In this document: positions 3,138 through 18,188 of the stretch, one piece after another
Position numbering within the stretch: position 1 is the stretch's first letter
Layout: each line of letters starts with the position of its first letter
IMG/VR virus record: IMGVR_UViG_2671181094_000006
Strand: one strand, 5' to 3'
DNA length: 18,188 bases
Source: a virus
Lineage: Duplodnaviria > Heunggongvirae > Uroviricota > Caudoviricetes
Program-made: the position numbers and the translations under genes
Notes under the pieces: model-generated
Databases searched by the model: none
What the model was told of the DNA's origin: nothing
Seen by the model: the letters and a program-made list of their open reading frames with translations, nothing else

Positions 3138-3563
3138 TTAATGAACTTCCGGCATCACAGGCCATTCAATATCTGGGGCATCATCAGGGTTAACACGACT
3201 GAGCAGAACGGAGTATTTTTCCCAGTGTTCCAGTCGCGTTTTTTCATCCAAGGTAGCCATTCCGTATTTCACAGCACGCGCTAAAGGGACGATAACGTCC
3301 TCAGCCTTTGTACGTTGCCGCTCTTTTTCAGCCCCAGCCAGCCTGGATAACTGTGCTTTGGTCTGTGGAGGTACATCGACCCACGAGGGCAAGCCATCAG
3401 CCCCTACCCCCCTTTGCTTACCTTCTGGTGGAACCCTGGTGAACTCGTGAAAAACGTTATCACTGACTGCTATAAGGTCCGCTGGTAGAGAATTGTTGTC
3501 CCGATAAGCTGGTAATAATTCATCAGGGTAAAAACACGCCGTTGACGCACTAAAATGATACAT
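3138..3563 (-). CDS. tail fibre assembly protein (Tfa-like chaperone)
   Basis: Start MYHFSASTACFYPDE and C-terminus HWEKYSVLLSRVNPDDAPDIEWPVMPEV match the conserved ends of phage Tfa chaperones (...W.KYR.LL.RVD...APDIEWP..P). Its ATG at 3563 follows the upstream TAG at 3566-3568 closely. Confidence 0.7.
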   Translation of the reverse strand: MYHFSASTACFYPDELLPAYRDNNSLPADLIAVSDNVFHEFTRVPPEGKQRGVGADGLPSWVDVPPQTKAQLSRLAGAEKERQRTKAEDVIVPLARAVKYGMATLDEKTRLEHWEKYSVLLSRVNPDDAPDIEWPVMPEVH

Positions 3564-3565
3564 GA

Positions 3566-4099
3566 CTATTCCCCTATAGCTAACCATCCAAAATTATCTG
3601 CATTACCCGAACTGCCGCTGATCCAGCCATATGCACGGAAACCGGAATTGGAATCATTGGTTACGGACACGTAACGATTTCCATCTGCGTACTTCGTAGC
3701 AACAATAGCAATAGCCCGCTTAGGAAAAGGTATCGGATACTGAACATTACCTGATGGTGAATTAATAGTGGCAGTTCCCATTTGAACAATAATATTTTTC
3801 TTTTCACCTGATGGTGTTCGGGTAGGAATAATACAGTAACCCTGTGAAGTAAGGGCACCTACGATGGGTTCAGATAGAAGGGCGGTGATCCTCAACTCAT
3901 CAATAACTTCGTTTAACTGACCATCATTTTCAGGCTCAAGCTGGCGGCCAGAACCCTCTACCACGCCCACCATCTCACGCTGCCAGGTATTAAAAATATC
4001 GGCAACAAGAATTGTTGGTGATACCCCATTAGCAACATTACCTTGTGTAAATTCCCCATTACTATCAGCAGTATCAGTGACTGAACTTATCTTACGCAT
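3566..4099 (-). CDS. tail-fibre-tip-like protein (177 aa), too short for a full fibre
   Basis: Directly upstream of and coupled to tfa, which is the usual fibre-chaperone arrangement. The C-terminal half is Gly/Ser/Asn-rich and looks beta-rich (...GWISGSSGNADNFGWLAIGE). The call is mainly positional. Confidence 0.45.
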   Translation of the reverse strand: MRKISSVTDTADSNGEFTQGNVANGVSPTILVADIFNTWQREMVGVVEGSGRQLEPENDGQLNEVIDELRITALLSEPIVGALTSQGYCIIPTRTPSGEKKNIIVQMGTATINSPSGNVQYPIPFPKRAIAIVATKYADGNRYVSVTNDSNSGFRAYGWISGSSGNADNFGWLAIGE

Positions 4100-4127
4100 T
4101 ATGCATATCCTTTAATTGATATCTTCG

Positions 4128-4586
4128 CTATATAGAAAGCGTATCTGCCATACTCACCGGCTCGATATACTTCTCAAGCGCTAACAGAGCGGCGTTAAAA
4201 CCAGCACGATAGCCGTTTGTGTCACCGTTAATCATGCTGTGTTGAAATGCCGCCATGTTCTGGTCTTCGGCATCAAGGAACTCCCAGCCAGGATAAACTT
4301 TCTCCATAGCCCGCCGGGTAAAACGACTGAGCTGGCGAGCGCTGCCTTTTAGTCTGGCAATAGCCTTCTGATGTGGGATCCCTTCCGCGATAAGATGAAA
4401 TGCCTGTATCGGATTTTGTTTTGCCGCTTTGCTCACCGCTATCAGATGCGCATCAGAATGGGGGCATTCAGGGAGTTCCTCTTCTTCAAGCGATTGCTGA
4501 AGCTGGTGCATACGCTGCATACGGCGCCCGGAAAAGCCATATGCATGCGCATCAGGTTGCTGCTTGTTGAGGTGCTGAAAGTTCAT
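4128..4586 (-). CDS. hypothetical protein, paralog of the 4607-5290 product (start taken at MNFQHLNK)
   Basis: Shares N-terminus (MxFxHL) and the central block WEF.D.E...NGY.A...AL.AL.K..EP with the upstream gene. GGAG lies about 9 nt upstream of ATG 4586. Confidence 0.6.
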   Translation of the reverse strand: MNFQHLNKQQPDAHAYGFSGRRMQRMHQLQQSLEEEELPECPHSDAHLIAVSKAAKQNPIQAFHLIAEGIPHQKAIARLKGSARQLSRFTRRAMEKVYPGWEFLDAEDQNMAAFQHSMINGDTNGYRAGFNAALLALEKYIEPVSMADTLSI

Positions 4587-5929: not shown

Positions 5930-6289
5930 ATGAGAATGACCAGCCGCAAAAAAGAGATACTCAGCTACTTTGAACCGGATAACCGCGATTGGGTAACAGG
6001 TGAGATTGGTGCGCCGCCGTTCGATGTGTCGGGTGTGGCCTACCTGCTTCATGGCATGGGATCATTCGGTAAACGCCACCAGCTCGAATCAACCCGGCGT
6101 ACGCTCGAAAGCATGGTTGCCGGTGGACTGCTTGAGCGAATGACAGTGTATGAATCCCGTCAGGTACGGCGCGGCGGTGAAACCAGCGCAACAGTCGTGC
6201 GCTACGGTTTACCGGGACAGTGTGCCGTTGTGCGAGATAGTGGCGGCGCTGATAACGCAATACCAGGTGAATACATGCGGGTCAGTTAA
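5930..6289 (+). CDS. conserved hypothetical protein, paralog B1 (119 aa)
   Basis: Full-length similarity to the 1548-1907 product; about 80% nucleotide identity over the first 130 nt by eye. Confidence 0.7.
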   Translation: MRMTSRKKEILSYFEPDNRDWVTGEIGAPPFDVSGVAYLLHGMGSFGKRHQLESTRRTLESMVAGGLLERMTVYESRQVRRGGETSATVVRYGLPGQCAVVRDSGGADNAIPGEYMRVS

Positions 6290-6824
6290 GAGCCTGCAAT
6301 CTGTCGTTGATGCGGCTCAGGTCGTAAACCCGGCGTTCAATATCCAGCATCAGGAAATTGTGGATCTCGGCCTGCTCAGGATTATCAGACTCTCTGGCCT
6401 GTAATAGCAATTCATTGTATCCATGCAAGCCGCCTGAGTTTTCCGCCGGGGTGGTGCCTTTCCCACGCAGGCAGCTAATGGGCTGATTACTCGTATCGTG
6501 TGTTTGCTTCTCCAGCACAATGACGCAATCCCACCAGTCGCCAAAGTCATACGTGTAAACCAGCTTGTCACCCTCATTCTGGAGCGCTGCCCATAGTGGT
6601 GTGATTGCCGCGTTACCCATGCTTTCACCCTCACCCCATACGCGATACTCGCTACCTAGATCACCTTTACGGCCTTTCTCGAACATATACAGATGTTCGT
6701 CATTCCAGCCAAAAGCCAACTGGATCACCGCGTGAAGTTCACTAAAGGGGATTTGCTCTGGAACCAGCACACGCCGCCATATTGGTGGTTTGCTGTCTCG
6801 GATGGTTATCTTTAGCTGGTACAT
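6282..6824 (-). CDS. pRiA4b ORF-3-like family protein (start taken at MYQLKITIRDSKPPIWRR)
   Basis: The N-terminal signature YQLKITIRDSKPPIWRRVLVP...LHAVIQLAFGWNDEHLYMF matches my recollection of the PRiA4b ORF-3-like domain. AGGA-containing RBS upstream of ATG 6824. Stop overlaps the B1 stop by 8 nt. Confidence 0.6.
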   Translation of the reverse strand: MYQLKITIRDSKPPIWRRVLVPEQIPFSELHAVIQLAFGWNDEHLYMFEKGRKGDLGSEYRVWGEGESMGNAAITPLWAALQNEGDKLVYTYDFGDWWDCVIVLEKQTHDTSNQPISCLRGKGTTPAENSGGLHGYNELLLQARESDNPEQAEIHNFLMLDIERRVYDLSRINDRLQALN

Positions 6825-6944
6825 GCAAATCCTGAATAAATGCGAATCGGAAGGATAACGATACTGACGCACTCACAATTCTGTAAAGGTGAATAAAGGT
6901 AATTTGCTTAATACGCATAAGTTACATGTGGAATAATCCCATAT

Positions 6945-8395: not shown

Positions 8396-8707
8396 TTACT
8401 GCGAACAGTCGCCCCCGATGGTGGCCTGTCGTTGCTTCTTGCCGCCATTTAACCGGAAGGCGTTACCGTTCGGTTGCGCTATCCCCATGCGGTGTTGCGT
8501 TTCGGTAACAGCTTTATGCAGATCGCCAAAGTCCTCAACCTTCACGGGCGGGCGCTTCACGTTCTCCAGACACGTTTCACGGCGGCGCTTTATCCATTCC
8601 CGATCATCGTCCTCGGTGCATAACAGCATGACTTCCATCCATCGCGCGGCGGCGCGTCGGTACAGCCCTTTTGCTTCCAGATCCTCGGCTTTACTGTCGT
8701 TTACCAT
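8396..8707 (-). CDS. PerC-family transcriptional activator-like protein
   Basis: N-terminus KAEDLEAKGLYRRAAARWMEVMLLC...REWIKRRRETCL resembles the PerC pattern (AE.LE..GLWRRA..RW.EV). GAGGGGG RBS upstream of ATG 8707. Confidence 0.55.
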   Translation of the reverse strand: MVNDSKAEDLEAKGLYRRAAARWMEVMLLCTEDDDREWIKRRRETCLENVKRPPVKVEDFGDLHKAVTETQHRMGIAQPNGNAFRLNGGKKQRQATIGGDCSQ

Positions 8708-8718
8708 GTGTATCCCCC

Positions 8719-9180
8719 TCAGAATGGATCTTCATCATCAAACGGCGGGCGCTGGTCAAAATCATCAGGGGTGTTATATAGCTCCCATCCCGGCGCGGAT
8801 TGTGTTGCGTGGCCTCTGCTGGCTCCGCTTGCTTTGACTGATTCGGCCCGCTTCCCGCCAGGGCGTACCGTTCTGGCGCTGATTACACTGTCGGCTACTA
8901 CCTGATAACCTTGCTGTATACCGCCATCCTTGCCCGTCCACTGATTGACCTGCATCGCTCCGGCAACACTGACTAAATCGCCTTTAACGTGTCCTGCCAG
9001 TGCGTCGGCCTGTTTGCCGAATGCCACCACGCCCAGCCAGAAAGTAACCTCTCCGCCCTCTGCTGCATGGCATGGCAGTGCCACCGCTAAACGCCCCATT
9101 GCCATGCTTGTACCGTTTGCTGTGGTGCGGGTCTGCGGGTCTGCGACTAAACGCCCGTAGGCTGATATCTGTGCTGTCAT
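8719..9180 (-). CDS. ssb: single-stranded DNA-binding protein
   Basis: OB-fold pattern (GRLVADPQTRTT.NG...W..VVAFGKQAD...KGD.V.V.G....QW) and acidic C-terminal tail DDEDPF typical of SSB. Confidence 0.8.
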   Translation of the reverse strand: MTAQISAYGRLVADPQTRTTANGTSMAMGRLAVALPCHAAEGGEVTFWLGVVAFGKQADALAGHVKGDLVSVAGAMQVNQWTGKDGGIQQGYQVVADSVISARTVRPGGKRAESVKASGASRGHATQSAPGWELYNTPDDFDQRPPFDDEDPF

Positions 9181-9283: not shown

Positions 9284-9545
9284 TGGTGGTTCAGGTGGTT
9301 CAGTGGTTCAGTACCCCTCTAGGCCGCGCCATCTCTGGGTTTTGCTGAACCACCTTTTAAATTTATCTGGTGGTTCAGTCGCCCTTCTTGGTGGTTCACT
9401 GCCAGCCAGTGAAAATAATCCGTTTCTCTCTGGTGGTTCAAAATACCCGTTTGGTGGTTCAGTGGTGGTTCACTTTCTTACAAAAAAACATTATAAATCA
9501 ATAACAATTACTTACTGAACCACTGAACCACCTGAACCACCACAA
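9284..9545. repeat. iteron array, putative satellite origin of replication (about 12 copies of GGTGGTTCA(G/C) in both orientations, flanked by A/T-rich stretches)
   Basis: Read directly, for example tggtggttcaggtggttcagtggttcag and ctgaaccactgaaccacctgaaccacc. Lies immediately downstream of the primase-helicase gene, analogous to the P4 ori/crr iterons. Confidence 0.7.
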
Positions 9546-9567
9546 AAAACCTCGCACGTGAAAAAGA

Positions 9568-12345
9568 TTATTGCTCTGGCTGGCTTTCCTCCCCATCCGG
9601 CAGGAATTGCAAAACGTAAACGTTAATCTGCCTCCCCTGAATGCGCGGGCTTTTCCTCTGAAATTTTTTTCCGTCTGCCGAAGGGGTAAGCATCCCCGAT
9701 TCTTTCAGGACGCGGGCCACCTGCTGCCTGTTAAACCCCTTAGCAATATCCTTATCGAAAGTGTCGGGGAACGTGTAAAACGTTATCGGTGAATCGTCAT
9801 GATTTCCGCGCTGCCTGTATCCAGCCAGATTATGAATCGGCAGGCTGGCGGGGTCGTAAGGCAGCGGCGCGAATCGACTCAGGCCATAGGCATTTAAAAA
9901 TGCCTCCGCCTGCTCGATGATCTGCTGGTGCTCTTTGTTCCCCGTGCCGAACTCTTTTAGCCATGCGTTATAGGCGTGCTGTATCGCATCCCGGCACGTT
10001 TGAGCATCCCAGCCAGTAACCACGCCACCCATCAGTAAAGCGGCCTCCAGAATGGCAAATCTTGCCCCTACACGGTGAACCTGTTCCCCATAGTCGGCAG
10101 GAATTAGACTGCGCCAGCGGGCCTCACACTCACGAACGGCATCAATCGCCTGTTGCTGGTGGTCTGAAAGCCATCTGATCCACTCCCTCCCGGCAGCGCC
10201 ATGATGGTTCTGGTAAGCGTCTTTCAGCGCGTCGGCGTGGTCTCTCCCTGTCTGGTACTCATGAAAGCGCACCGCCTTACTCAGCGGGATATTCAGCAGT
10301 CGCACCAGTTGCCCCGCTTTTGTCTTGCGTCCTGCGGTGGAGATGAACGTTTCTAAATCCATTTCCCCGGTGCTGATTGCCACGGTGCGCCAGCGTTTCA
10401 GATCCCGGTTGCCTCCTTCCTTTGCTCCCTGCAATTTCCCCACGCCGTTAAACAGGGCATAGGCAGACTGAGCAACGCTTATCGGGTCTGCGCCCTGTCC
10501 GACTTCATCCAGTGGCATCAGCCCGTCATTGTGGGCGGCGGCCTCGTTTATCAGCCCCAGCGCCGTTCCGTACCACGTCAGGCGCAAGGCATCAGGGTTG
10601 CCATAAAGACTGCTCGCCACGTTCTGCGTGGTTGTTTTCCCGGCGCTCGATTGCTCGTAAAAATGAATCCCGAAGCCGTCACGCTCCGCCAGCCCGATTA
10701 ACGGTGCTGCAAGTGCGGCGGCAATGCCTGTCATCATCGCGTAGTTACCGTATGCCAGACGCGCAACACTCTTACGCCAGCTCTCTGAGGTTCCCGCCAC
10801 GGTGTACCCGGCAGCGGCAGAACTGCGGCCACTGAATAAAACGGGTTGTGCAGGTGCGCCGATAATCTCCCCGTCCGGCATGATGTATGCCCCGCACTGC
10901 CAGCCAGTAGCGTGAGCAACACGCCACAATTCACGTGAGCCGCTACGCTGTAACCAGTCAGCCAGAATCGCCCGCAAGCTGCTTTTGGTGGTGACGTTAA
11001 CCCCGCCCGCTTTCAGGGTGCGCCAGCCTTCGCGCTCCCCGATATCAGCCAGGGGGATAGCCGCTGTTGTCGGTATGCCTGCGCCAAAGGCCAGCCAGCG
11101 TAATATCAGATACTGATCCTTGTCGTCCCGCCCGGTGCCGATAACGTCCATCGGTGAGGCCAGCCAGCTTTCATTGTTGATAATCTCGCCGCTTTCCTTG
11201 TCCACTTTAGGCGTGATCCAGTAAACGCCATCTTTGCGGCTCTCAATGCGGGGTTTTAGCGGGTCTTTCTCTGGCTGGTCAGTTTTACCGCCCTCAATGG
11301 CCTGTAGTTGTGGTTTCACGCATTCCCCCTGCGGCTGGTACATCGAATCATTAAACGCAGCCGTAGCGACTTCCAGCCCGTGTTGCTGGTGGTAGTCGTT
11401 CCAGTCAGCTTTGCTGTCAGTCGGTGGCAGCGATACCCAGCCAGCCACGGATAAAGCCGCTTTCTCTGCGGCCTCCTTCCCGATGTTGGTGGCTCCGGTT
11501 TCGGAGGCTGCTGTAGGGTGGTCGTTATCTGCGGCGATAATAATTTGCGACTGCGGGTGTTTCCGGCGCATTACTCCGGCAACGTGGATCAGGTTCCCGG
11601 CGTCAATTGCCGCCACTGTGAGCGCGTCAGGCCGCATCTGGTGAACGGACAGGGCGGTAGCCAGCCCCTCGGCAATCACGACGCTTTGAGGCCGTTCCAG
11701 CGCGTTTACGGCGTAATATGCCCCGCGCTTTGCCGATCCCTTAATGAGTCGCTTTTCTCCCTGCGGGGTGATGGTCTGCGCGGCTGTGACTGCGCCGGAT
11801 TCATCCACCAGCTCCAGCAATAACGAACCATCGGGCATAAGCGGGTATTTAAACCCGGTCAGCCCTTTTGATTGCAGGTACTCAGATTCTCCCTGTATGG
11901 ATCTCAGGCGCATTCCGGTATACAGACGGGCAAACGTAGCCCTTCGCTGATCTGCGTCCTCTGCTGCCTGTTTCTGGCGCTCCTGCTCACGCTGCTGGCG
12001 GTCTGCGGCTAACTGCCTCTGTCTCTGGCTGGCAGCGTCTGGTGCTGATTCTGCGGCCCGGTAATCAATACCCAGCACATCAGCGGCAAGCTGTGCCGCC
12101 TCCGTGGTGTCGCAGTTGTTCACCTTCTTAATCAGGTCTAAGCCATCGCCCGCGCCGCACTGGTTGCAGATAAAGCTGCCGCGCCCGTTGTCGTCGAATC
12201 TGAAACGGTCTTTCCCACCACATGCAGGGCAGGGGGCATGGCGGCGCGATGAATCAGGAACGTCGATAGACAATCCGGCCAGCACATAAGGCCATCGCCC
12301 TGCTGCGGCGCTGGTCACTTCGCGGATAAGGTCGATATTACGCAT
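9568..12345 (-). CDS. primase-helicase (P4 alpha-like: N-terminal zinc ribbon, TOPRIM primase, C-terminal P-loop NTPase)
   Basis: 925 aa. Zinc ribbon CPACGGKDRFRF...CNQCG, TOPRIM acidic motifs (VVIAEGLATALS ... IIIAADND), Walker A-like SSAGKTT. GGGAGG RBS upstream of ATG 12345. Confidence 0.9.
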   Translation of the reverse strand: MRNIDLIREVTSAAAGRWPYVLAGLSIDVPDSSRRHAPCPACGGKDRFRFDDNGRGSFICNQCGAGDGLDLIKKVNNCDTTEAAQLAADVLGIDYRAAESAPDAASQRQRQLAADRQQREQERQKQAAEDADQRRATFARLYTGMRLRSIQGESEYLQSKGLTGFKYPLMPDGSLLLELVDESGAVTAAQTITPQGEKRLIKGSAKRGAYYAVNALERPQSVVIAEGLATALSVHQMRPDALTVAAIDAGNLIHVAGVMRRKHPQSQIIIAADNDHPTAASETGATNIGKEAAEKAALSVAGWVSLPPTDSKADWNDYHQQHGLEVATAAFNDSMYQPQGECVKPQLQAIEGGKTDQPEKDPLKPRIESRKDGVYWITPKVDKESGEIINNESWLASPMDVIGTGRDDKDQYLILRWLAFGAGIPTTAAIPLADIGEREGWRTLKAGGVNVTTKSSLRAILADWLQRSGSRELWRVAHATGWQCGAYIMPDGEIIGAPAQPVLFSGRSSAAAGYTVAGTSESWRKSVARLAYGNYAMMTGIAAALAAPLIGLAERDGFGIHFYEQSSAGKTTTQNVASSLYGNPDALRLTWYGTALGLINEAAAHNDGLMPLDEVGQGADPISVAQSAYALFNGVGKLQGAKEGGNRDLKRWRTVAISTGEMDLETFISTAGRKTKAGQLVRLLNIPLSKAVRFHEYQTGRDHADALKDAYQNHHGAAGREWIRWLSDHQQQAIDAVRECEARWRSLIPADYGEQVHRVGARFAILEAALLMGGVVTGWDAQTCRDAIQHAYNAWLKEFGTGNKEHQQIIEQAEAFLNAYGLSRFAPLPYDPASLPIHNLAGYRQRGNHDDSPITFYTFPDTFDKDIAKGFNRQQVARVLKESGMLTPSADGKKFQRKSPRIQGRQINVYVLQFLPDGEESQPEQ

Positions 12346-12359
12346 TCGTGTTACCTCCC

Positions 12360-12986
12360 TCAGTGCGCCGCTGGCATTTCAGGCAAGCCGTTTTCATTCA
12401 GATCGGCAATGAATCCATCGTGTAGCTCTGCCAGCGTTTCACGCCCGAACGGGGTCAATTCCCCGCGCTCCGTGTCGATCATGGCCTGATAAAAAACAAT
12501 GGCGTTCGCTGTTCCCTGCTCAATGCCGTAGCGCTCAATCATTGCGCCCTCCATGTTGTTAGCCATCGCCAGACGTTCCGCGAACGGGTAAACCACAATC
12601 CCCGCCGTGCCATTTGAATAAAACGTCACCAGCGACGATTTGCCGTCATCCTCCGTGATGGTGGTTGTGCCGTTTTCGCGCTTCATCTCAGAAATGAACG
12701 TCGCAGCAATCAGCCAGCGCCACATAGTGACGTTATGCTGCGCGGTAAAGTCGAACCAGCCACGCGCCCCGCCATCAGCAACGGCAAAATGTATGGCGTA
12801 TCCGATATCTGGCTTGTCGTCGTACTCTCCGGCGTCAAGGCCGTTCACGGCGCTCTCGTAGCTGATAAGAGCAACCAGCTCAAATCCCCCGGCATCATTG
12901 CGGGTCATGATATTGACGCCGTGCGGTGTGGCTTCGGCGCGTAATACGTCGTCATTTCCCGGTGTGAATTTCTCTACGTTGCTCAT
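12360..12986 (-). CDS. hypothetical protein (208 aa), last gene of the small-gene operon upstream of the primase
   Basis: ATG overlaps the upstream stop as ATGA. No motif recognised. Confidence 0.6.
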   Translation of the reverse strand: MSNVEKFTPGNDDVLRAEATPHGVNIMTRNDAGGFELVALISYESAVNGLDAGEYDDKPDIGYAIHFAVADGGARGWFDFTAQHNVTMWRWLIAATFISEMKRENGTTTITEDDGKSSLVTFYSNGTAGIVVYPFAERLAMANNMEGAMIERYGIEQGTANAIVFYQAMIDTERGELTPFGRETLAELHDGFIADLNENGLPEMPAAH

Positions 12987-13195
12987 GCTTTGCCGTCCAG
13001 ACTCAAATCCATATCAACTAACTCGCCTTCTACTGAATCCATCAGCTCGGGGATACCATCCAGAAGGGTAATGACTGCGCCAATAAGATGATCCGTGCCG
13101 CTATCTTTTTTAATCGGTGCTTCAAGCCAAAGAGAAAGAACTTGCTGCGCTTGCTTGATACGGCAGGCTGAATCAATCAGGGATAACTTGCTCAT
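12983..13195 (-). CDS. hypothetical protein (70 aa)
   Basis: Translationally coupled (ATGA overlaps at both ends). Confidence 0.55.
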   Translation of the reverse strand: MSKLSLIDSACRIKQAQQVLSLWLEAPIKKDSGTDHLIGAVITLLDGIPELMDSVEGELVDMDLSLDGKA

Positions 13196-13452
13196 GCGCT
13201 GCCCTCCCGATACTCGCGCATCTTCGTTAGTTCATCAGCCAGGCGATTAACTTTGCGCTCGGTTCTAATGGTTGCGCATCTCAATTCGGTGATTAATGTC
13301 GCAAGTCTGGCACCATAAAGCGGATTGGCGGCACGTAATGGCCCGTCCAGATAAAGATTCCATAACTCAAGCAATTCACTGGCATAGCGCACCGCTGCCG
13401 TTGCGTCACCTGTCGGGATTGTTTCTGGTTCAATTACGGCGACTGTATTCAT
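13192..13452 (-). CDS. hypothetical protein (86 aa)
   Basis: Translationally coupled (start/stop overlaps). Confidence 0.55.
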   Translation of the reverse strand: MNTVAVIEPETIPTGDATAAVRYASELLELWNLYLDGPLRAANPLYGARLATLITELRCATIRTERKVNRLADELTKMREYREGSA

Positions 13453-13712
13453 GCGCTGCCCTCCGCATCAATACGGGCTATATCGACAATCGCCAGGACT
13501 TTATCCAGCCAGCAATGCACGATGGCCGCCTGCTCATCGTCGAGGCGTGGTGCCAGCTCAGTCATAACGTAAGCCAGACCATTACGGGCGCGGGTCATGC
13601 GTTCCGCGGTACGCTCTGCCAGCGTAAAATCTTCCGGGTAGGGTTGTTCACGGGATAACATCGCCTCGGCCTGAAGCACTGCAGGATGGAGATAGATAGT
13701 GTGAATGTTCAC
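13449..13712 (-). CDS. hypothetical protein (87 aa, GTG start)
   Basis: GTG at 13712 overlaps the upstream stop as GTGA. AGGAGG lies 7 nt upstream. Confidence 0.55.
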   Translation of the reverse strand: MNIHTIYLHPAVLQAEAMLSREQPYPEDFTLAERTAERMTRARNGLAYVMTELAPRLDDEQAAIVHCWLDKVLAIVDIARIDAEGSA

Positions 13713-13888
13713 GCTGCCACCTCCTGAACACGGGTGATGCGAACGTGTTTATAACCGCCCTGCTGCGCCAATAACTGAGCGGTCGATTTGGCTGTATCCG
13801 GGCTGGCACCGGTCAGGGTGTAGTGAATGCCGACGGTGTTACCGCGCTTATTAACCGCGTATCCGTCAATCTGGAAGGTTTTACGCAT
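13709..13888 (-). CDS. hypothetical small protein (59 aa; start taken at MRKTFQIDGY, the ORF track extends further)
   Basis: GGAGGTG RBS lies 4-5 nt upstream of ATG 13888. The longer ORF-track start lacks an RBS. Confidence 0.55.
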   Translation of the reverse strand: MRKTFQIDGYAVNKRGNTVGIHYTLTGASPDTAKSTAQLLAQQGGYKHVRITRVQEVAA

Positions 13889-14084
13889 GACGCACCTCCG
13901 ACACCGGCAGGCGAGCAGCCAGAGAGAGGATAAAGTGCGGCGCCAAAATGCGGCGGGCGTCACGTTCGGTTGCGGCCTCGACGGACAGGCGGCAGGGAGT
14001 GGCCTTTTTGTCGTGACGGTTGAGCGCCAGAAAGCGCCAGATGTAGTTGTTCCGCCCTTGCGGGTGTGTGATATGATCGTTCAT
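13881..14084 (-). CDS. hypothetical small protein (67 aa, MNDHITHPQG...), first gene of the leftward operon
   Basis: This is the C-terminal 67 codons of the 391-aa track ORF 13881-15056. GAGG RBS upstream of ATG 14084. The rest of that long ORF crosses a promoter region, an opposite-strand gene and terminators. Confidence 0.5.
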   Translation of the reverse strand: MNDHITHPQGRNNYIWRFLALNRHDKKATPCRLSVEAATERDARRILAPHFILSLAARLPVSEVRHA

Positions 14085-14190
14085 AGCTGCCTCGTTATCT
14101 ACGCTAACGTTGGTGGTTAGAGGCCCGTTGGTGTTGTCGCACCTGCGGGCTTCGCTGTTTTTGTGCCTTACCTGTGCTTTAGCTGTGGAT

Positions 14191-14253
14191 AAGGTGTTTA
14201 AATACCTTATATCAAGGTGTTTAAATACGTCAAGCCAAAAGTATTTAAACACT
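14191..14253. promoter_or_regulatory. operator-like repeats: AAGGTGTTTAAATAC twice in direct orientation plus one inverted copy (GTATTTAAACAC), in a divergent promoter region
   Basis: Read directly. The repeat is centred on the palindrome TTTAAA. Lies between the leftward operon start (14084) and the rightward small gene (14317). Confidence 0.55.
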
Positions 14254-14316
14254 TCACAAATCTGTAGAGATGATTTATTTTCTCTAGTGTTAAAACACCA
14301 ACAGGAATCATCTTCA

Positions 14317-14520
14317 ATGGCTACAGGGCACAGAAACAACAAGTCTGCATACAAGGGAATCAGATTCCCATATGAATTGGTTGAGGAAATTGACGCCAGC
14401 GTAGAGCGAGAGAAAGCCGAAAACTCCGGGGCCAATTTCTCCGCATGGGTGCTGGATGCCTGCGGACGTAAGCTCAAATCAGAGCAGCGCAAAAAATCCA
14501 AAGCTGAGCCAGAGGCATGA
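14317..14520 (+). CDS. small putative DNA-binding regulator (67 aa, ribbon-helix-helix-like), candidate island repressor
   Basis: MATGHRNNKSAYKGIRFPYELVEEIDASVEREKAENSGANFSAWVLDACGRKL... The only plus-strand gene in this region, divergent from the replication operon across the operator repeats. The ORF-track N-terminal extension from 14110 looks non-coding. Confidence 0.5.
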   Translation: MATGHRNNKSAYKGIRFPYELVEEIDASVEREKAENSGANFSAWVLDACGRKLKSEQRKKSKAEPEA

Positions 14521-14662
14521 GTTATGCCTGACTCAACACGGTGTAAATGGCGAGACGCAATCGCTGTTGTTTTTTTAGTTGCAACTGCGTATTCCTCATA
14601 CTGGATAGTTAAGGCTATCGTGTCGCTAATCAGGTAACTGAGTTGGAAAAGCATAAAGCAGA

Positions 14663-14690
14663 GGGTAGGATTCGGAATCCTGCCCTTTTT
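14663..14690 (+). terminator. rho-independent terminator (8-bp stem GGGTAGGA/TCCTGCCC with one G-U pair, loop TTCGGAA, then TTTTT)
   Basis: Read directly, downstream of the 14317-14520 gene. Confidence 0.5.
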
Positions 14691-14807
14691 CCTCAAAGTG
14701 AGGACTGGTGGAATAATCAATGACTTAGGCACAAAGCGCCATTTTACGCTTTGCCATAAAAACAATGAGAAATCTACCAGAATGCAAATTTGCACTCTGT
14801 TCAGACT

Positions 14808-14894
14808 TTGACCATCAGCATTAACCCTGGTATGCTTAATCTGTTTCGGTTTTTCGTAGTGACATTGGCAGCTCTGCAAAGCTGCCTTTGTTTT
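14808..14894 (+). ncRNA. candidate short antisense RNA (about 50 nt) convergent on the 3' end of the Bro-N gene
   Basis: -35 TTGACC (14808-14813), 17-nt spacer, -10 TATGCT (14831-14836). Hairpin GGCAGC-N8-GCTGCC (14867-14886) followed by TTTGTTTT, which overlaps the Bro-N stop codon. Confidence 0.25.
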
Positions 14895-15510
14895 ATGCAT
14901 CATCTTCAACGCCCTCCAGCAATCCGGGTTGATACTTTCTCCATAATCCAATTTCTTCCATCTCAAGACGGGCTTTCTCTCCTTTGCACGCCTGTAGGTC
15001 GCTACCGCACTTACTGGCTTTCTTTGTGTACTGATCCTTGCGGCGACTGAAGTCATTTAGGAATGAGAACGGGACGCCGTATGAACCGGTTTTACGTATT
15101 GACGGGATTACTTCGCGGAACACCCAGTTTGTAAATCTGTGGGCAAACGAGCCTGTAGTAGAAGCTTTACGACTACGGGCAATCAGTTTATAAAAGCCTG
15201 ATTCTGCGGCCATATTCCAGCTACGTGCTCCACCACGTTTACCCGAATGACCCTCAGTTAAAGTTAGGGTCATTACCTCGTCGCCATCCAGAGAGGCAAC
15301 GGCACTGGTTGGATTGCTGATTTCCAGCGCCTGGCACACATCAGATACAACGAACCACGGCTCACCGAAAACATTCACGATCCTGACCGTGCGGCCTTCA
15401 AATTTAATTACTGAAATATCATTTTCACTTGCCGTGAAATTAGCCTTTTTGCTGGCTTCAGGGTGAGTCTTGCCGCTGCCAGTTAAGGCAGTAAATTTTT
15501 TCTGAGTCAT
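14893..15510 (-). CDS. Bro-N domain protein (phage antirepressor-like)
   Basis: N-terminal region FEGRTVRIVNVFGEPWFVVSDVCQALEISNPTSAVASLDGDE matches the Bro-N/antirepressor N-terminal signature. GGAG RBS upstream of ATG 15510. Confidence 0.75.
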   Translation of the reverse strand: MTQKKFTALTGSGKTHPEASKKANFTASENDISVIKFEGRTVRIVNVFGEPWFVVSDVCQALEISNPTSAVASLDGDEVMTLTLTEGHSGKRGGARSWNMAAESGFYKLIARSRKASTTGSFAHRFTNWVFREVIPSIRKTGSYGVPFSFLNDFSRRKDQYTKKASKCGSDLQACKGEKARLEMEEIGLWRKYQPGLLEGVEDDA

Positions 15511-15648
15511 TTCTATCGCTCCAAAAGTTGTTATTCAGAGCTGCCGCGACAGCGTTAGGTATGCTGCAATATTTCTAACGCAACACCACGCAACAAATTT
15601 TCTTTTCGCTGATCAGACGAAGTTGCGTGTGGTTGCATTGGCCTTGTG

Positions 15649-15933
15649 TTAGGCCGATTTACGGCTATATGGGTTATTGACGTTAGGTACAGCAGGGGGA
15701 TTACGAACCCACCAGAGCACATCGGACAAAAGCCAGGCGCAGCTATTGCGGCCAAAGTGGCAGCGCGGAGGAAAGCGGCCCTCTTGCTCCATCTTCCAAC
15801 GACTGGAGCGGGAAAGGCTTGTGATTTCGCCACATTCATCTTCACGAATCCGGCGATCAAACTTGAAGCCGTACTCCTCAAGAAGGTTACGGCGTTGTTC
15901 GGGGTTAGGTGGGGTAAAGATAATATTGTTCAT
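15649..15933 (-). CDS. alpA: AlpA-family phage transcriptional regulator (HTH)
   Basis: ...ITSLSRSSRWKMEQEGRFPPRCHFGRNSCAWLLSDVLWWVRN is typical of the AlpA HTH. Start taken at ATG 15933 with GGAGG 4 nt upstream; the ORF track extends to 15981. Confidence 0.75.
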   Translation of the reverse strand: MNNIIFTPPNPEQRRNLLEEYGFKFDRRIREDECGEITSLSRSSRWKMEQEGRFPPRCHFGRNSCAWLLSDVLWWVRNPPAVPNVNNPYSRKSA

Positions 15934-16029
15934 ACTGCCTCCACTGTTTCTAGGTTTGTGGAGGTTATTGTTATCAATCAAAAAGAACTTGTCTGAAATA
16001 TTCCGGAAAATTAACGGAATTTCCGCAGA

Positions 16030-16961: not shown

Positions 16962-18188
16962 TTAATCTCTATTCGCTACAGGTAACAGAACCACATTTTT
17001 ATGATTACCCGCAAGAAGTTCTAAACGTTCATGCCATTTGTTCAGCGCATCCAGCTTCTCCGGCAAGTACAGGCTACGGTTATATATAGCCATGACGCCC
17101 GGTAGAGCATGACCCAGCAGCAACTCTACAATATGCGGTGCTATGCCCATATTGTTTAACCCCGTGGAGAACGTGCGCCGCAGATCGTGAAGTGTCCACG
17201 GCTCGTTATGATGGAAATCTTTAAAAAGCCGTCGCCCTTTCAAAGATACAGCTTGCCGGGTGCGCTCTTCTCCCAGCAGCAGGCCTGTTTTACCCGTCTC
17301 GCGTTTTAACTCTTCCAGCCACGGGCGTATAGCTTCAGGGATTGATCTCACGATTTTCTCGCGGGTTTTGCTGTGCTCTTTCGGGACTGTCCAAATCCAC
17401 GAGGTAAAATCCCACTCCGACCATCGAGAGAGGCGAACTTCCATCGTTCGAGCGCCAAACAGCACCAGCATTTTGAGAAGACGTGAATAATACGGCTGCT
17501 GATCATCGCTGTCTGTGCAGCGCCATACATCGGCCAGCTCGCTATCTGACAATACGCGGTCACGTTGACCGGATGGCTGGCCTACATCCTGAATGGTGAG
17601 AAAGGCTAGAGCATCACTGGCGGCATAGCGGCGAACCTTGCAGAAGCGTAACGCCTGTTTAGAAATCTGGAACATGCGGCCGGCGGTCATGGGTTTGGTC
17701 AGATTTATTTCATCAAAACAGGCCACCCAATGACGGGTTTCACATCTGGTGAGGGGATAACGACCAAGGCGCGGGTAAATATGCTTGCGTAGCTGTGCCC
17801 TTACCAGCTCCTCATCGCTGCGCTTTCTCCTGGCGTAGTTCACCAGCCAGTATTCGAGAGCATCCTGTACTGTCACAGGTTTAAGCGTTTCTTCGGTGCT
17901 CAGTTCAAGCTCTGTTTTTGGATCAAGACCACCAGCCAGCCACTGGCGACACTTTTCCCGCTTTTCTCTCGCCGCTTTTAGCGACAAATCCGGGTAACGG
18001 CCAAGCGTTAAACGTTCGAGTTTGCTACCCCTTCCGCCCAATCGGTAAGCGAACACCCAGCTAACGTTACCTTGCTTCGAAACCTTAATGCTCAGTCCTT
18101 CACCATCGGCAATCATGATCGGTGCTTCACGCTCAGAACCCTGCAGCGCTTTTAGCTTTTTGTCGCTCAGTTTGTTTGTACCAGCCAT
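16962..18188 (-). CDS. int: tyrosine recombinase, P4-type integrase (N-terminal arm-binding domain plus catalytic domain)
   Basis: 408 aa. N-terminal DGEGLSIKVSKQGNVSWVFAYR resembles the P4-family arm-binding motif. C-terminus has HDLRRTFST and LLGHA...AIYNRSLY (catalytic R, H-x-x-R, Y). The start codon sits exactly at the window edge, so the true N-terminus could lie beyond it. Confidence 0.9.
   Translation of the reverse strand: MAGTNKLSDKKLKALQGSEREAPIMIADGEGLSIKVSKQGNVSWVFAYRLGGRGSKLERLTLGRYPDLSLKAAREKREKCRQWLAGGLDPKTELELSTEETLKPVTVQDALEYWLVNYARRKRSDEELVRAQLRKHIYPRLGRYPLTRCETRHWVACFDEINLTKPMTAGRMFQISKQALRFCKVRRYAASDALAFLTIQDVGQPSGQRDRVLSDSELADVWRCTDSDDQQPYYSRLLKMLVLFGARTMEVRLSRWSEWDFTSWIWTVPKEHSKTREKIVRSIPEAIRPWLEELKRETGKTGLLLGEERTRQAVSLKGRRLFKDFHHNEPWTLHDLRRTFSTGLNNMGIAPHIVELLLGHALPGVMAIYNRSLYLPEKLDALNKWHERLELLAGNHKNVVLLPVANRD

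Follow-up and report, generated by a model that had tools for sequence, protein, structure and literature searches.

The window analysed here (the whole stretch of 18,188 nucleotides) contains on its plus strand, between positions 14808 and 14896, a compact unit that is very probably a functional promoter–terminator cassette, as indicated by its pattern of conservation, and that likely yields a stable small RNA. By analogy with known antisense systems we propose, with a probability of about 0.5, that this ~52-nt cis-antisense RNA represses the translation of an eta-like long ORF and the read-through into the icd–primase operon. Since the unit lies opposite the start of this long ORF, which ends in a cell-division inhibitor, and not opposite the Bro-N domain gene, it would probably gate the read-through into the replication genes. 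Gram-negative PICI/P4-like satellites occur widely in Klebsiella, Enterobacter, Citrobacter, Yersinia and E. coli, and their cargo includes defence and virulence functions; to our knowledge, the way in which they are silenced and switched on is poorly understood outside P4.

The window is itself such a Gram-negative PICI/P4-like satellite (Table 1). It is strongly mosaic with respect to the loci fetched for comparison, and its closest relative differs from module to module: the integrase matches three loci (L003, L004 and L033) at 90–92%, the stretch 13449–13890 matches L003 at 99.5% and the immunity region matches L050 at 84%. The int-alpA RNA motif is also present in L081. The first 9500 nt represent the late or accessory zone of the satellite, with its tail-fibre genes on the minus strand; besides the five genes listed for it in Table 1 (SSB included), several ORFs of 150–260 aa gave no match to any family. 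Between the Icd-like start and the promoter-like site of ylcI (14253–14281), the segment 14170–14260 contains GGTGTTTAAATAC three times, twice in direct and once in inverted orientation; these copies look like operator repeats of a divergent control region. The 37-aa hydrophobic ORF that follows ylcI is flanked by plus-strand terminator-like hairpins and has a 45-aa counterpart annotated in the E. coli relatives L003 and L004 (WP_157921956.1); it may encode a small membrane protein or a toxin.

Table 1. Features of the window discussed in the text (positions are those of the whole window).
Feature	Position	Strand	Remarks
-35 hexamer TTGACC	14808–14813	plus	
Extended -10, TGg (14828–14830) and TATGCT (14831–14836)	14828–14836	plus	spacer 17 nt, contains TGn
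Predicted single-stranded, U-rich 5' RNA body, 24 nt	14843–14866	plus	+1 at about G14843, placed by the distance to the -10
Predicted terminator hairpin GGCAGCT-CTGCAA-AGCTGCC	14867–14886	plus	7-bp GC-rich stem, loop CTGCAA
T-tract TTTGTTTTAT	14887–14896	plus	overlaps the Bro-N stop (14893–14895) and codons 3–5 of the eta-like ORF
TTTGTTTT portion of the T-tract	14887–14894	plus	
Eta-like long ORF	13881–14903	minus	340 codons; ATG at 14903 or 14900; SD GGAGGG 14917–14912
Nested Icd-like/Kil-like gene	13881–14084	minus	67 aa, own SD and ATG; C-terminus of the long ORF; NCBIfam phage_ICD_like, E 4e-20
Second candidate cis-antisense RNA	14085–14170	plus	opposite the SD/ATG (14084–14082) of the Icd-like gene
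Integrase	16962–18188	minus	
Rfam int-alpA RNA motif RF02996	16886–16953	minus	62.6 bits, E 3.6e-11; between integrase and 279-aa ORF
279-aa ORF		minus	between int-alpA motif and AlpA
AlpA	15649–15981	minus	
Bro-N domain gene	14893–15510	minus	Pfam Bro-N, E 1.6e-15; TAA stop 14893–14895
Immunity-like region			between Bro-N and Icd-like gene
YlcI/YnfO (DUF3950) gene	14320–14520	plus	inside the immunity-like region
37-aa hydrophobic ORF MPDSTRCKWRDAIAVVFLVATAYSSYWIVKAIVSLIR	14524–14637	plus	directly after ylcI
Terminator-like hairpins	14546–14575 and 14663–14695	plus	3' of ylcI and 37-aa ORF
Small genes		minus	between Icd-like gene and primase
DUF927/Toprim primase	9568–12345	minus	
SSB	8719–9180	minus	
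ANR-family regulator-like ORF	8396–8707		late/accessory zone
PRiA4_ORF3-like gene	6282–6872		late/accessory zone
Tail-fibre C-terminal gene	3566–4099		late/accessory zone
Tail-fibre assembly (Caudo_TAP) gene	3138–3587		late/accessory zone

The earlier note had described a plus-strand promoter (TTGACC, a 17-nt spacer and TATGCT) followed by a hairpin and a T-tract that overlap the Bro-N stop codon, and all of these elements are indeed present, with the TAA lying inside the T-tract. Judged in the window sequence alone, the promoter and terminator motifs are no better than chance: 15 promoter-like and 30 terminator-like sites were counted in the window against 17.9 ± 4.7 and 20.7 ± 4.7, respectively, expected from shuffled sequences, and the -10 hexamer TATGCT is weak without its TG extension. 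At the level of sequence comparison, it is not the motifs alone that rise above chance but the fact that related elements conserve the unit in its entirety.

The candidate gene is the reverse complement of approximately codons 3–32 of the eta-like ORF, and it was therefore necessary to test whether its conservation could be due merely to coding. The loci used for this test were fetched by protein similarity and are hence unbiased at synonymous sites; there were 80 of them, and the N-terminus of the ORF was present in 49, corresponding to 46 unique DNA sequences. In this set the -35 element TTGAC(C/G) and the -10 element TAnnCT were each found in 45 of the 46 unique loci, the TG extension of the -10 was retained in 41, and the spacer measured 16 or 17 nt in all 46. 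The hexamers of a sigma-70 promoter, separated by a spacer within the 16–18 nt range, are thus kept across the homologues. The RNA body is very variable among the elements, while promoter and terminator are unchanged. The end of the T-tract lies at a constant distance from the -10, so that the predicted transcript measures ~52 nt in 41 of the 46 loci.

The predicted 54-nt RNA (14843–14896) folds at -16.7 kcal/mol (z = -3.67 relative to shuffles), and among 36 distinct sequences 99.6% of the stem cells are paired, four of the seven stem pairs showing compensatory changes on both sides. The covariation score of the stem was reached by none of 500 shuffles, and sliding the partner columns led to much lower pairing; the hairpin covariation comes from few haplotypes, however, and so reflects few independent events. 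The TTTGTTTT portion was unchanged in all 36 sequences. A GC-rich covarying hairpin is thus followed by a U-tract, as in intrinsic terminators, the U-tract being broken by one G.

An alternative is that there is no small RNA at all and that the block simply encodes an N-terminal peptide (M..KTKAA..AGGQ), with the hairpin acting in the mRNA, for example on translation or stability, and with the promoter and terminator likeness being incidental. Several features agree with this idea: KTKAA is invariant in the protein, locus L044 carries an in-frame 6-nt deletion, the QCHY block differs between close relatives by substitutions that are silent in the minus frame, and initiation can profit from an A-rich stretch behind the AUG. 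We nevertheless consider it rather improbable, since synonymous change is absent beneath the -35, the -10 and the T-tract but occurs freely in the adjacent Lys and Gln codons. For the Gln at the -35, CAA is used in 28 cases and CAG in none, compared with 11 CAA and 10 CAG at the control Gln codon 17; under the T-tract, Lys is AAA and Thr is ACA in 46 of 46 loci, compared with free variation at Lys codon 16 (13 AAA, 13 AAG). Codon 20 of the ORF specifies six different amino acids (H, I, N, D, L and V), but its third base, which is the A at position -11 of the promoter, is T in all 31 loci. The reading frame crosses the -35 in either of two phases without any change in the motif: the '..AGGQ' class reads it as GGT CAA, and the Yersinia-type '..LIDQVN' class, with one base less in the spacer, as caG GTC AAt. 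The codon pairs that form the stem covary perfectly (GCG/CGC, GCA/TGC, GCC/GGC, GCT/AGC and ACC/GGT), and the closing pair, which is G.U in 15 of the 36 sequences, pairs only on the plus strand and would be an A.C mismatch on the mRNA strand. Outside KTKAA the rest of the N-terminal peptide is hypervariable. These patterns indicate selection on a putative plus-strand promoter and terminator that are superimposed on a coding region otherwise unconstrained in its peptide. The invariance of KTKAA is confounded with this conservation, so that for the hairpin and the T-tract the direction of the constraint is not fully separable.

Two other explanations of the same block were tried and rejected. 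The hairpin does not fit a minus-strand terminator of Bro-N, because no U-tract follows it on that strand (AAUGUCACUAC) and its G.U closing pairs turn into A.C. A plus-strand hydrophobic peptide resembling a type I toxin (MLNLFRFFVVTLAAL...), which would start in the -10, was discarded because many relatives have TATCCT or TATTCT there and hence no ATG; this frame also ends at differing positions, after 86 aa in the window and after 32 aa in L005, and the substitutions in it are mostly non-synonymous.

The unit recurs in related elements as a discrete entity. A covariance model of the RNA, built from the sequences compared above, gave exactly one match per element in 60 of 91 related Enterobacterales satellite loci, and every match was antisense to the 5' end of an eta-like ORF. 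The same model gave no match in P4, where a homologous antisense unit at the eta start was sought and is absent, nor in a remnant, located in a BREX island, that retains the promoter alone. Copies of the 94-bp stretch spanning -35 and T-tract in E. coli genomes are 97–98% identical, with homology lost beyond either edge, and the homology breakpoints between mosaic elements fall at the -35 and at the end of the T-tract. The copy of E. coli 873.10 occupies 525695–525788 of NZ_CP061754 and that of E. coli HZ13 467721–467812 of NZ_CP128609; Klebsiella likewise has carriers. When a DNA pattern limited to the promoter, with the hairpin and T-tract left out, was searched in genome contigs and in IMG/VR contigs, it matched two species representatives (Raoultella and Pluralibacter) among the former and 41 contigs among the latter; the hairpin and T-tract followed at the same distance in all of them except the BREX-island remnant. 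In this remnant (L002, E. coli Ec1120, positions 4118–4160, in a BREX island by an integrase) the -35 and -10 are kept, the RNA body and terminator are replaced, and the minus-strand ORF is fused to another N-terminus (MKKRFSDEQIISILREAEAG...); it represents the scar of a recombination event that broke within the unit.

The neighbours of the unit bear on the question of its target. It lies 3' of a KilAC antirepressor gene in E. coli 873.10 (L001), 3' of an AntA/AntB gene in E. coli EC09 and VG1046 (L003 and L004), and directly 3' of an AlpA-type HTH gene in E. coli SCU-125 and HZ13 (L005 and L006), where no antirepressor is present. The unit is therefore not tied to Bro-N. Its constant partner is the minus-strand ORF that starts beside the T-tract and ends at the Icd-like stop. 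According to the earlier note, the short antisense RNA would control the Bro-N antirepressor-like gene, to which it is convergent at the 3' end. The plus-strand candidate RNA gene in this proposal is strongly backed by the comparative evidence; Bro-N as its target is not, because the overlap is limited to the stop codon, so that 'antisense to Bro-N' holds only trivially. Regulation of Bro-N through its 3' end would follow the example of lambda OOP acting on cII, which is likewise a short convergent RNA ending at a gene junction. The T-tract does overlap the Bro-N stop, a Bro-N mRNA running past this stop would be complementary to the RNA, and RNase III cleavage triggered by the duplex could in principle destabilise the upstream cistron. 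OOP, however, reaches tens of nucleotides into the coding 3' end of cII, whereas the coding overlap here is 2–4 nt at most, and the identical unit follows the unrelated KilAC and AntA/AntB genes and occurs without any antirepressor, its invariant partner being the start of the downstream ORF. Control of Bro-N by this RNA is thus, in our opinion, very improbable.

The proposed target, the eta-like ORF, starts at ATGATGCATAA, overlapping the stop of Bro-N, its upstream neighbour. A conserved SD and ATG are located immediately to the right of the T-tract on the minus strand in every carrier of the unit, and in the relatives the SD overlaps or abuts the stop of the upstream gene; P4 is arranged likewise. 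The ORF crosses the entire immunity region and ends a short way before the primase operon. Its frame has no internal stops, the two remaining minus frames containing 19 and 24, and none of 20,000 shuffles remained open. In every locus with the unit, an open ORF of 160–560 codons extends from the conserved start to the Icd stop. The databases contain 526 homologues, many of them 300–590 aa long, for which NCBI uses such names as 'host cell division inhibitor Icd-like protein' in some cases and 'Ash family' in one; the public annotations of the gene range from 70 to ~590 aa, so that it is evidently called inconsistently. The alignment falls into four segments, namely the conserved N-terminus with the invariant KTKAA, a hypervariable middle, the opposite-strand shadow of ylcI and the Icd-like C-terminus.

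By tblastn, this C-terminus is homologous to the end of the P4 'cI/ash' ORF (the eta/kil region) and to N15 gp32. In the P4 sequence as we read it, a 199-codon ORF with three ATGs overlapping the stop of ORF88 (the alpA homologue) ends as Kil, and in the window as well as in all carriers of the unit the terminal part of the long ORF is a Kil/Icd homologue that can be started separately. Because the same design is seen in P4 and the C-terminus is homologous to P4 Kil, the long ORF is, judged by its sequence, an eta/kil-type nested pair. P4-type internal CI/seqA RNA elements were not found in it (no C4 or isrK match in the window and 12 relatives); the plus-strand ylcI cassette and the antisense RNA candidates occupy the long ORF in place of CI/seqA. 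As described in PMC10111431, which cites Forti et al. 1999, translation of P4 eta, which is coupled to the upstream alpA homologue, prevents termination and shields the read-through transcripts from Rho. From the open yet hypervariable ORF and from this P4 precedent we infer that translation of the long ORF may likewise prevent Rho-dependent termination in the present satellites.

The interval may thus be regarded as a self-contained gene that would consist of a sigma-70 extended -10 promoter, a 24-nt U-rich 5' tail, a hairpin and a U-tract. The RNA is perfectly complementary to approximately +7 to +58 of the eta-like ORF, comprising the third base of codon 3, codons 4–19 in full and part of codon 20; the SD and the AUG are not covered, and the pairing begins ~4–6 nt past the AUG, inside the first five codons. 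In the mechanism that we propose, the RNA would pair with leaky transcripts arriving from the int/alpA/Bro side. First contact could be a loop–loop kiss between the RNA loop CUGCAA and the loop of the complementary mRNA hairpin, facing complementary loops being the usual geometry for the start of kissing in cis-antisense systems. By pairing, the RNA would keep ribosomes from loading at the eta-like start or lead to cleavage of the duplex by RNase III, and the untranslated downstream RNA would then be stopped by Rho before icd and primase. The involvement of Rho is extrapolated from P4. Under these circumstances icd and primase may stay silent until strong AlpA-driven transcription outruns, titrates or occludes the antisense promoter. 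The variable RNA body fits either element-specific recognition or a simple lack of constraint.

The same RNA could be real and act mainly in trans, on mRNAs of helper phages, the host or co-resident satellites in an Hfq-type manner, or the unit could serve as a plus-strand terminator or insulator shielding alpA and int from convergent ylcI transcription. The layout with a U-rich 5' part, a GC hairpin and a U-tail is of the Hfq type, and the variable body could set the specificity between co-resident satellites. When the 24-nt 5' tail was scanned by RNAduplex against 9500–14835 (minus) and 13900–14800 (plus), however, no target in the satellite operon exceeded the shuffled controls, the best pairing being -20.5 kcal/mol compared with a shuffled-sRNA mean of -21.1, and the simplest assumption is a cis target, namely the perfectly complementary 52 nt at a translation start. 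As an insulator the hairpin would be the third plus-strand terminator 3' of ylcI, but two are already there, and the conserved promoter would be left unexplained. Together, these possibilities seem to us to have a low probability. It is also conceivable that the promoter matters and not the RNA, the convergent transcription interfering by collision or occlusion with that of int, alpA and Bro, given that the promoter, which is conserved and of reasonable strength, points against the incoming operon and lies only ~90 bp away from the gene junction. The conserved covarying terminator, however, is predicted to end the transcript after ~52 nt, which makes the collision zone small and argues for selection on the RNA product, and pure interference is in our view quite unlikely. 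Cis-antisense repression of the eta-like ORF continues to be our preferred reading.

The earlier note had drawn its precedent from P1, where an antisense RNA controls antirepressor expression. This precedent is inexact: the P1 c4 RNA runs in the same direction as its target and is processed out of their common transcript, and closer structural precedents are P22 sar, IS10 RNA-OUT and SymR. No C4-family RNA is detectable in our material. The C4 model (RF01695) had no match in the window at the gathering threshold, none at E ≤ 10 in 13900–15600 and none at E ≤ 0.1 in 12 relatives, and isrK was found neither in the window region nor in these relatives; in P4, used as a positive control, C4 and isrK were recovered with 74.9 and 60.8 bits, respectively. 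Both the model match and the co-orientation having been tested and found absent, the candidate RNA does not belong to the C4 family. The lack of C4 and isrK immunity RNAs here and in the 12 relatives makes an alternative RNA control plausible. More generally, Rfam searches at the gathering threshold in the window, and at relaxed E-values in 13900–15600 and in 12 related loci, placed no family over the candidate, the sole match over 14808–14896 being a chance-level PsrR1 (16.9 bits, E 4.7). No report of the RNA was found in the literature searched, the exact hairpin sequences included. The candidate RNA thus matches no Rfam family, is unreported in the searched literature and is uncurated.

A second candidate cis-antisense RNA was noticed opposite the start of the Icd-like gene. 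Its parts are the extended -10 TGaTATGAT at 14069–14077, two hairpins and, after these, TTCGCTGTTTTTG, and it yields sub-threshold Rfam matches to SymR on the antisense strand (32.4 bits in the window, 42.5 in L052 and 30.5 in L079). Its conservation extends over 43 unique loci, in which compensatory and U.G substitutions preserve pairing on the plus strand alone. The presence of this second conserved candidate opposite the icd/kil start suggests that cis-antisense control is a theme of this satellite family. A broader and clearly tentative conjecture, to which we would attach a limited likelihood, is that in a large group of Enterobacterales PICI/P4-like satellites the co-oriented CI/c4 RNA has been replaced by two convergent cis-antisense RNAs, at the eta-like start and at the kil/icd start, which jointly gate the translation-dependent read-through into the replication operon, and that the hypervariable body of the first RNA is an element-specific determinant of immunity or incompatibility among co-resident satellites.

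If our preferred reading, cis-antisense repression of the eta-like ORF, is true, the junction of the integration and replication modules harbours an RNA switch that is testable by a single nucleotide change. It would explain the existence of a long, hypervariable and always open ORF that is annotated as 'Icd-like protein' at anything from 70 to 590 aa, and it would add one more, so far uncurated, sRNA family to the catalogue. The unit also appears to be a clean case of promoter and terminator signals superimposed on a reading frame, in which DNA-level and protein-level constraints can be distinguished, with the proviso that the hairpin and T-tract are not fully separable from the coding constraint on KTKAA.

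Among the known systems, RNA-OUT of IS10/Tn10, which acts on RNA-IN, offers a near parallel. It too is a short cis-antisense RNA with a stem-loop, transcribed outward from a promoter inside the 5' coding region of its target, and it represses translation initiation of a mobile-element gene in what amounts to copy-number or threshold control. Unlike the candidate RNA, which stops ~4–6 nt short of the AUG, RNA-OUT covers both SD and AUG; there is no sequence similarity between the two, and Rho termination of a replication operon is proposed only here. The sar RNA of the P22 immI region is also a small antisense RNA that is made from a convergent promoter inside an immunity/antirepressor operon and blocks translation of the next cistron. 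However, sar targets the ribosome-binding site of ant, whereas in our case the antirepressor-like gene is upstream and dispensable and it is the eta-like ORF that we propose as the target; there is no homology between the two RNAs. SymR, which acts on SymE, and other type I antitoxin RNAs (RF01809) are cis-antisense RNAs opposite the 5' end of the mRNA of a harmful gene. The candidate RNA (14843–14896), in contrast, gives no SymR match, and its proposed target, the eta-like ORF, is hypervariable and is probably important as a spacer that is translated, not as a toxin.

With P4 eta/kil and its CI RNA, and with the P1 c4–icd–ant arrangement, the proposed system shares the principle that an RNA, and not a protein, gates translation. 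The P4 long ORF is likewise coupled to an upstream alpA-type gene and ends in Kil/Icd, and its translation protects the read-through transcripts, as stated in PMC10111431 (citing Forti 1999). P4 differs in having no plus-strand ylcI cassette of the kind that this satellite family carries inside the long ORF. The P4 CI and P1 c4 RNAs are co-oriented with the target, processed from its transcript and pair with short sites, as is partly described in PMC10111431. The candidate RNA, unlike them, would be produced by a separate convergent unit with its own promoter and terminator and is fully complementary to its putative target. From this point of view, the candidate RNA resembles IS10 RNA-OUT, P22 sar and SymR in its proposed function, and P4 CI and P1 c4 in its presumed logic.
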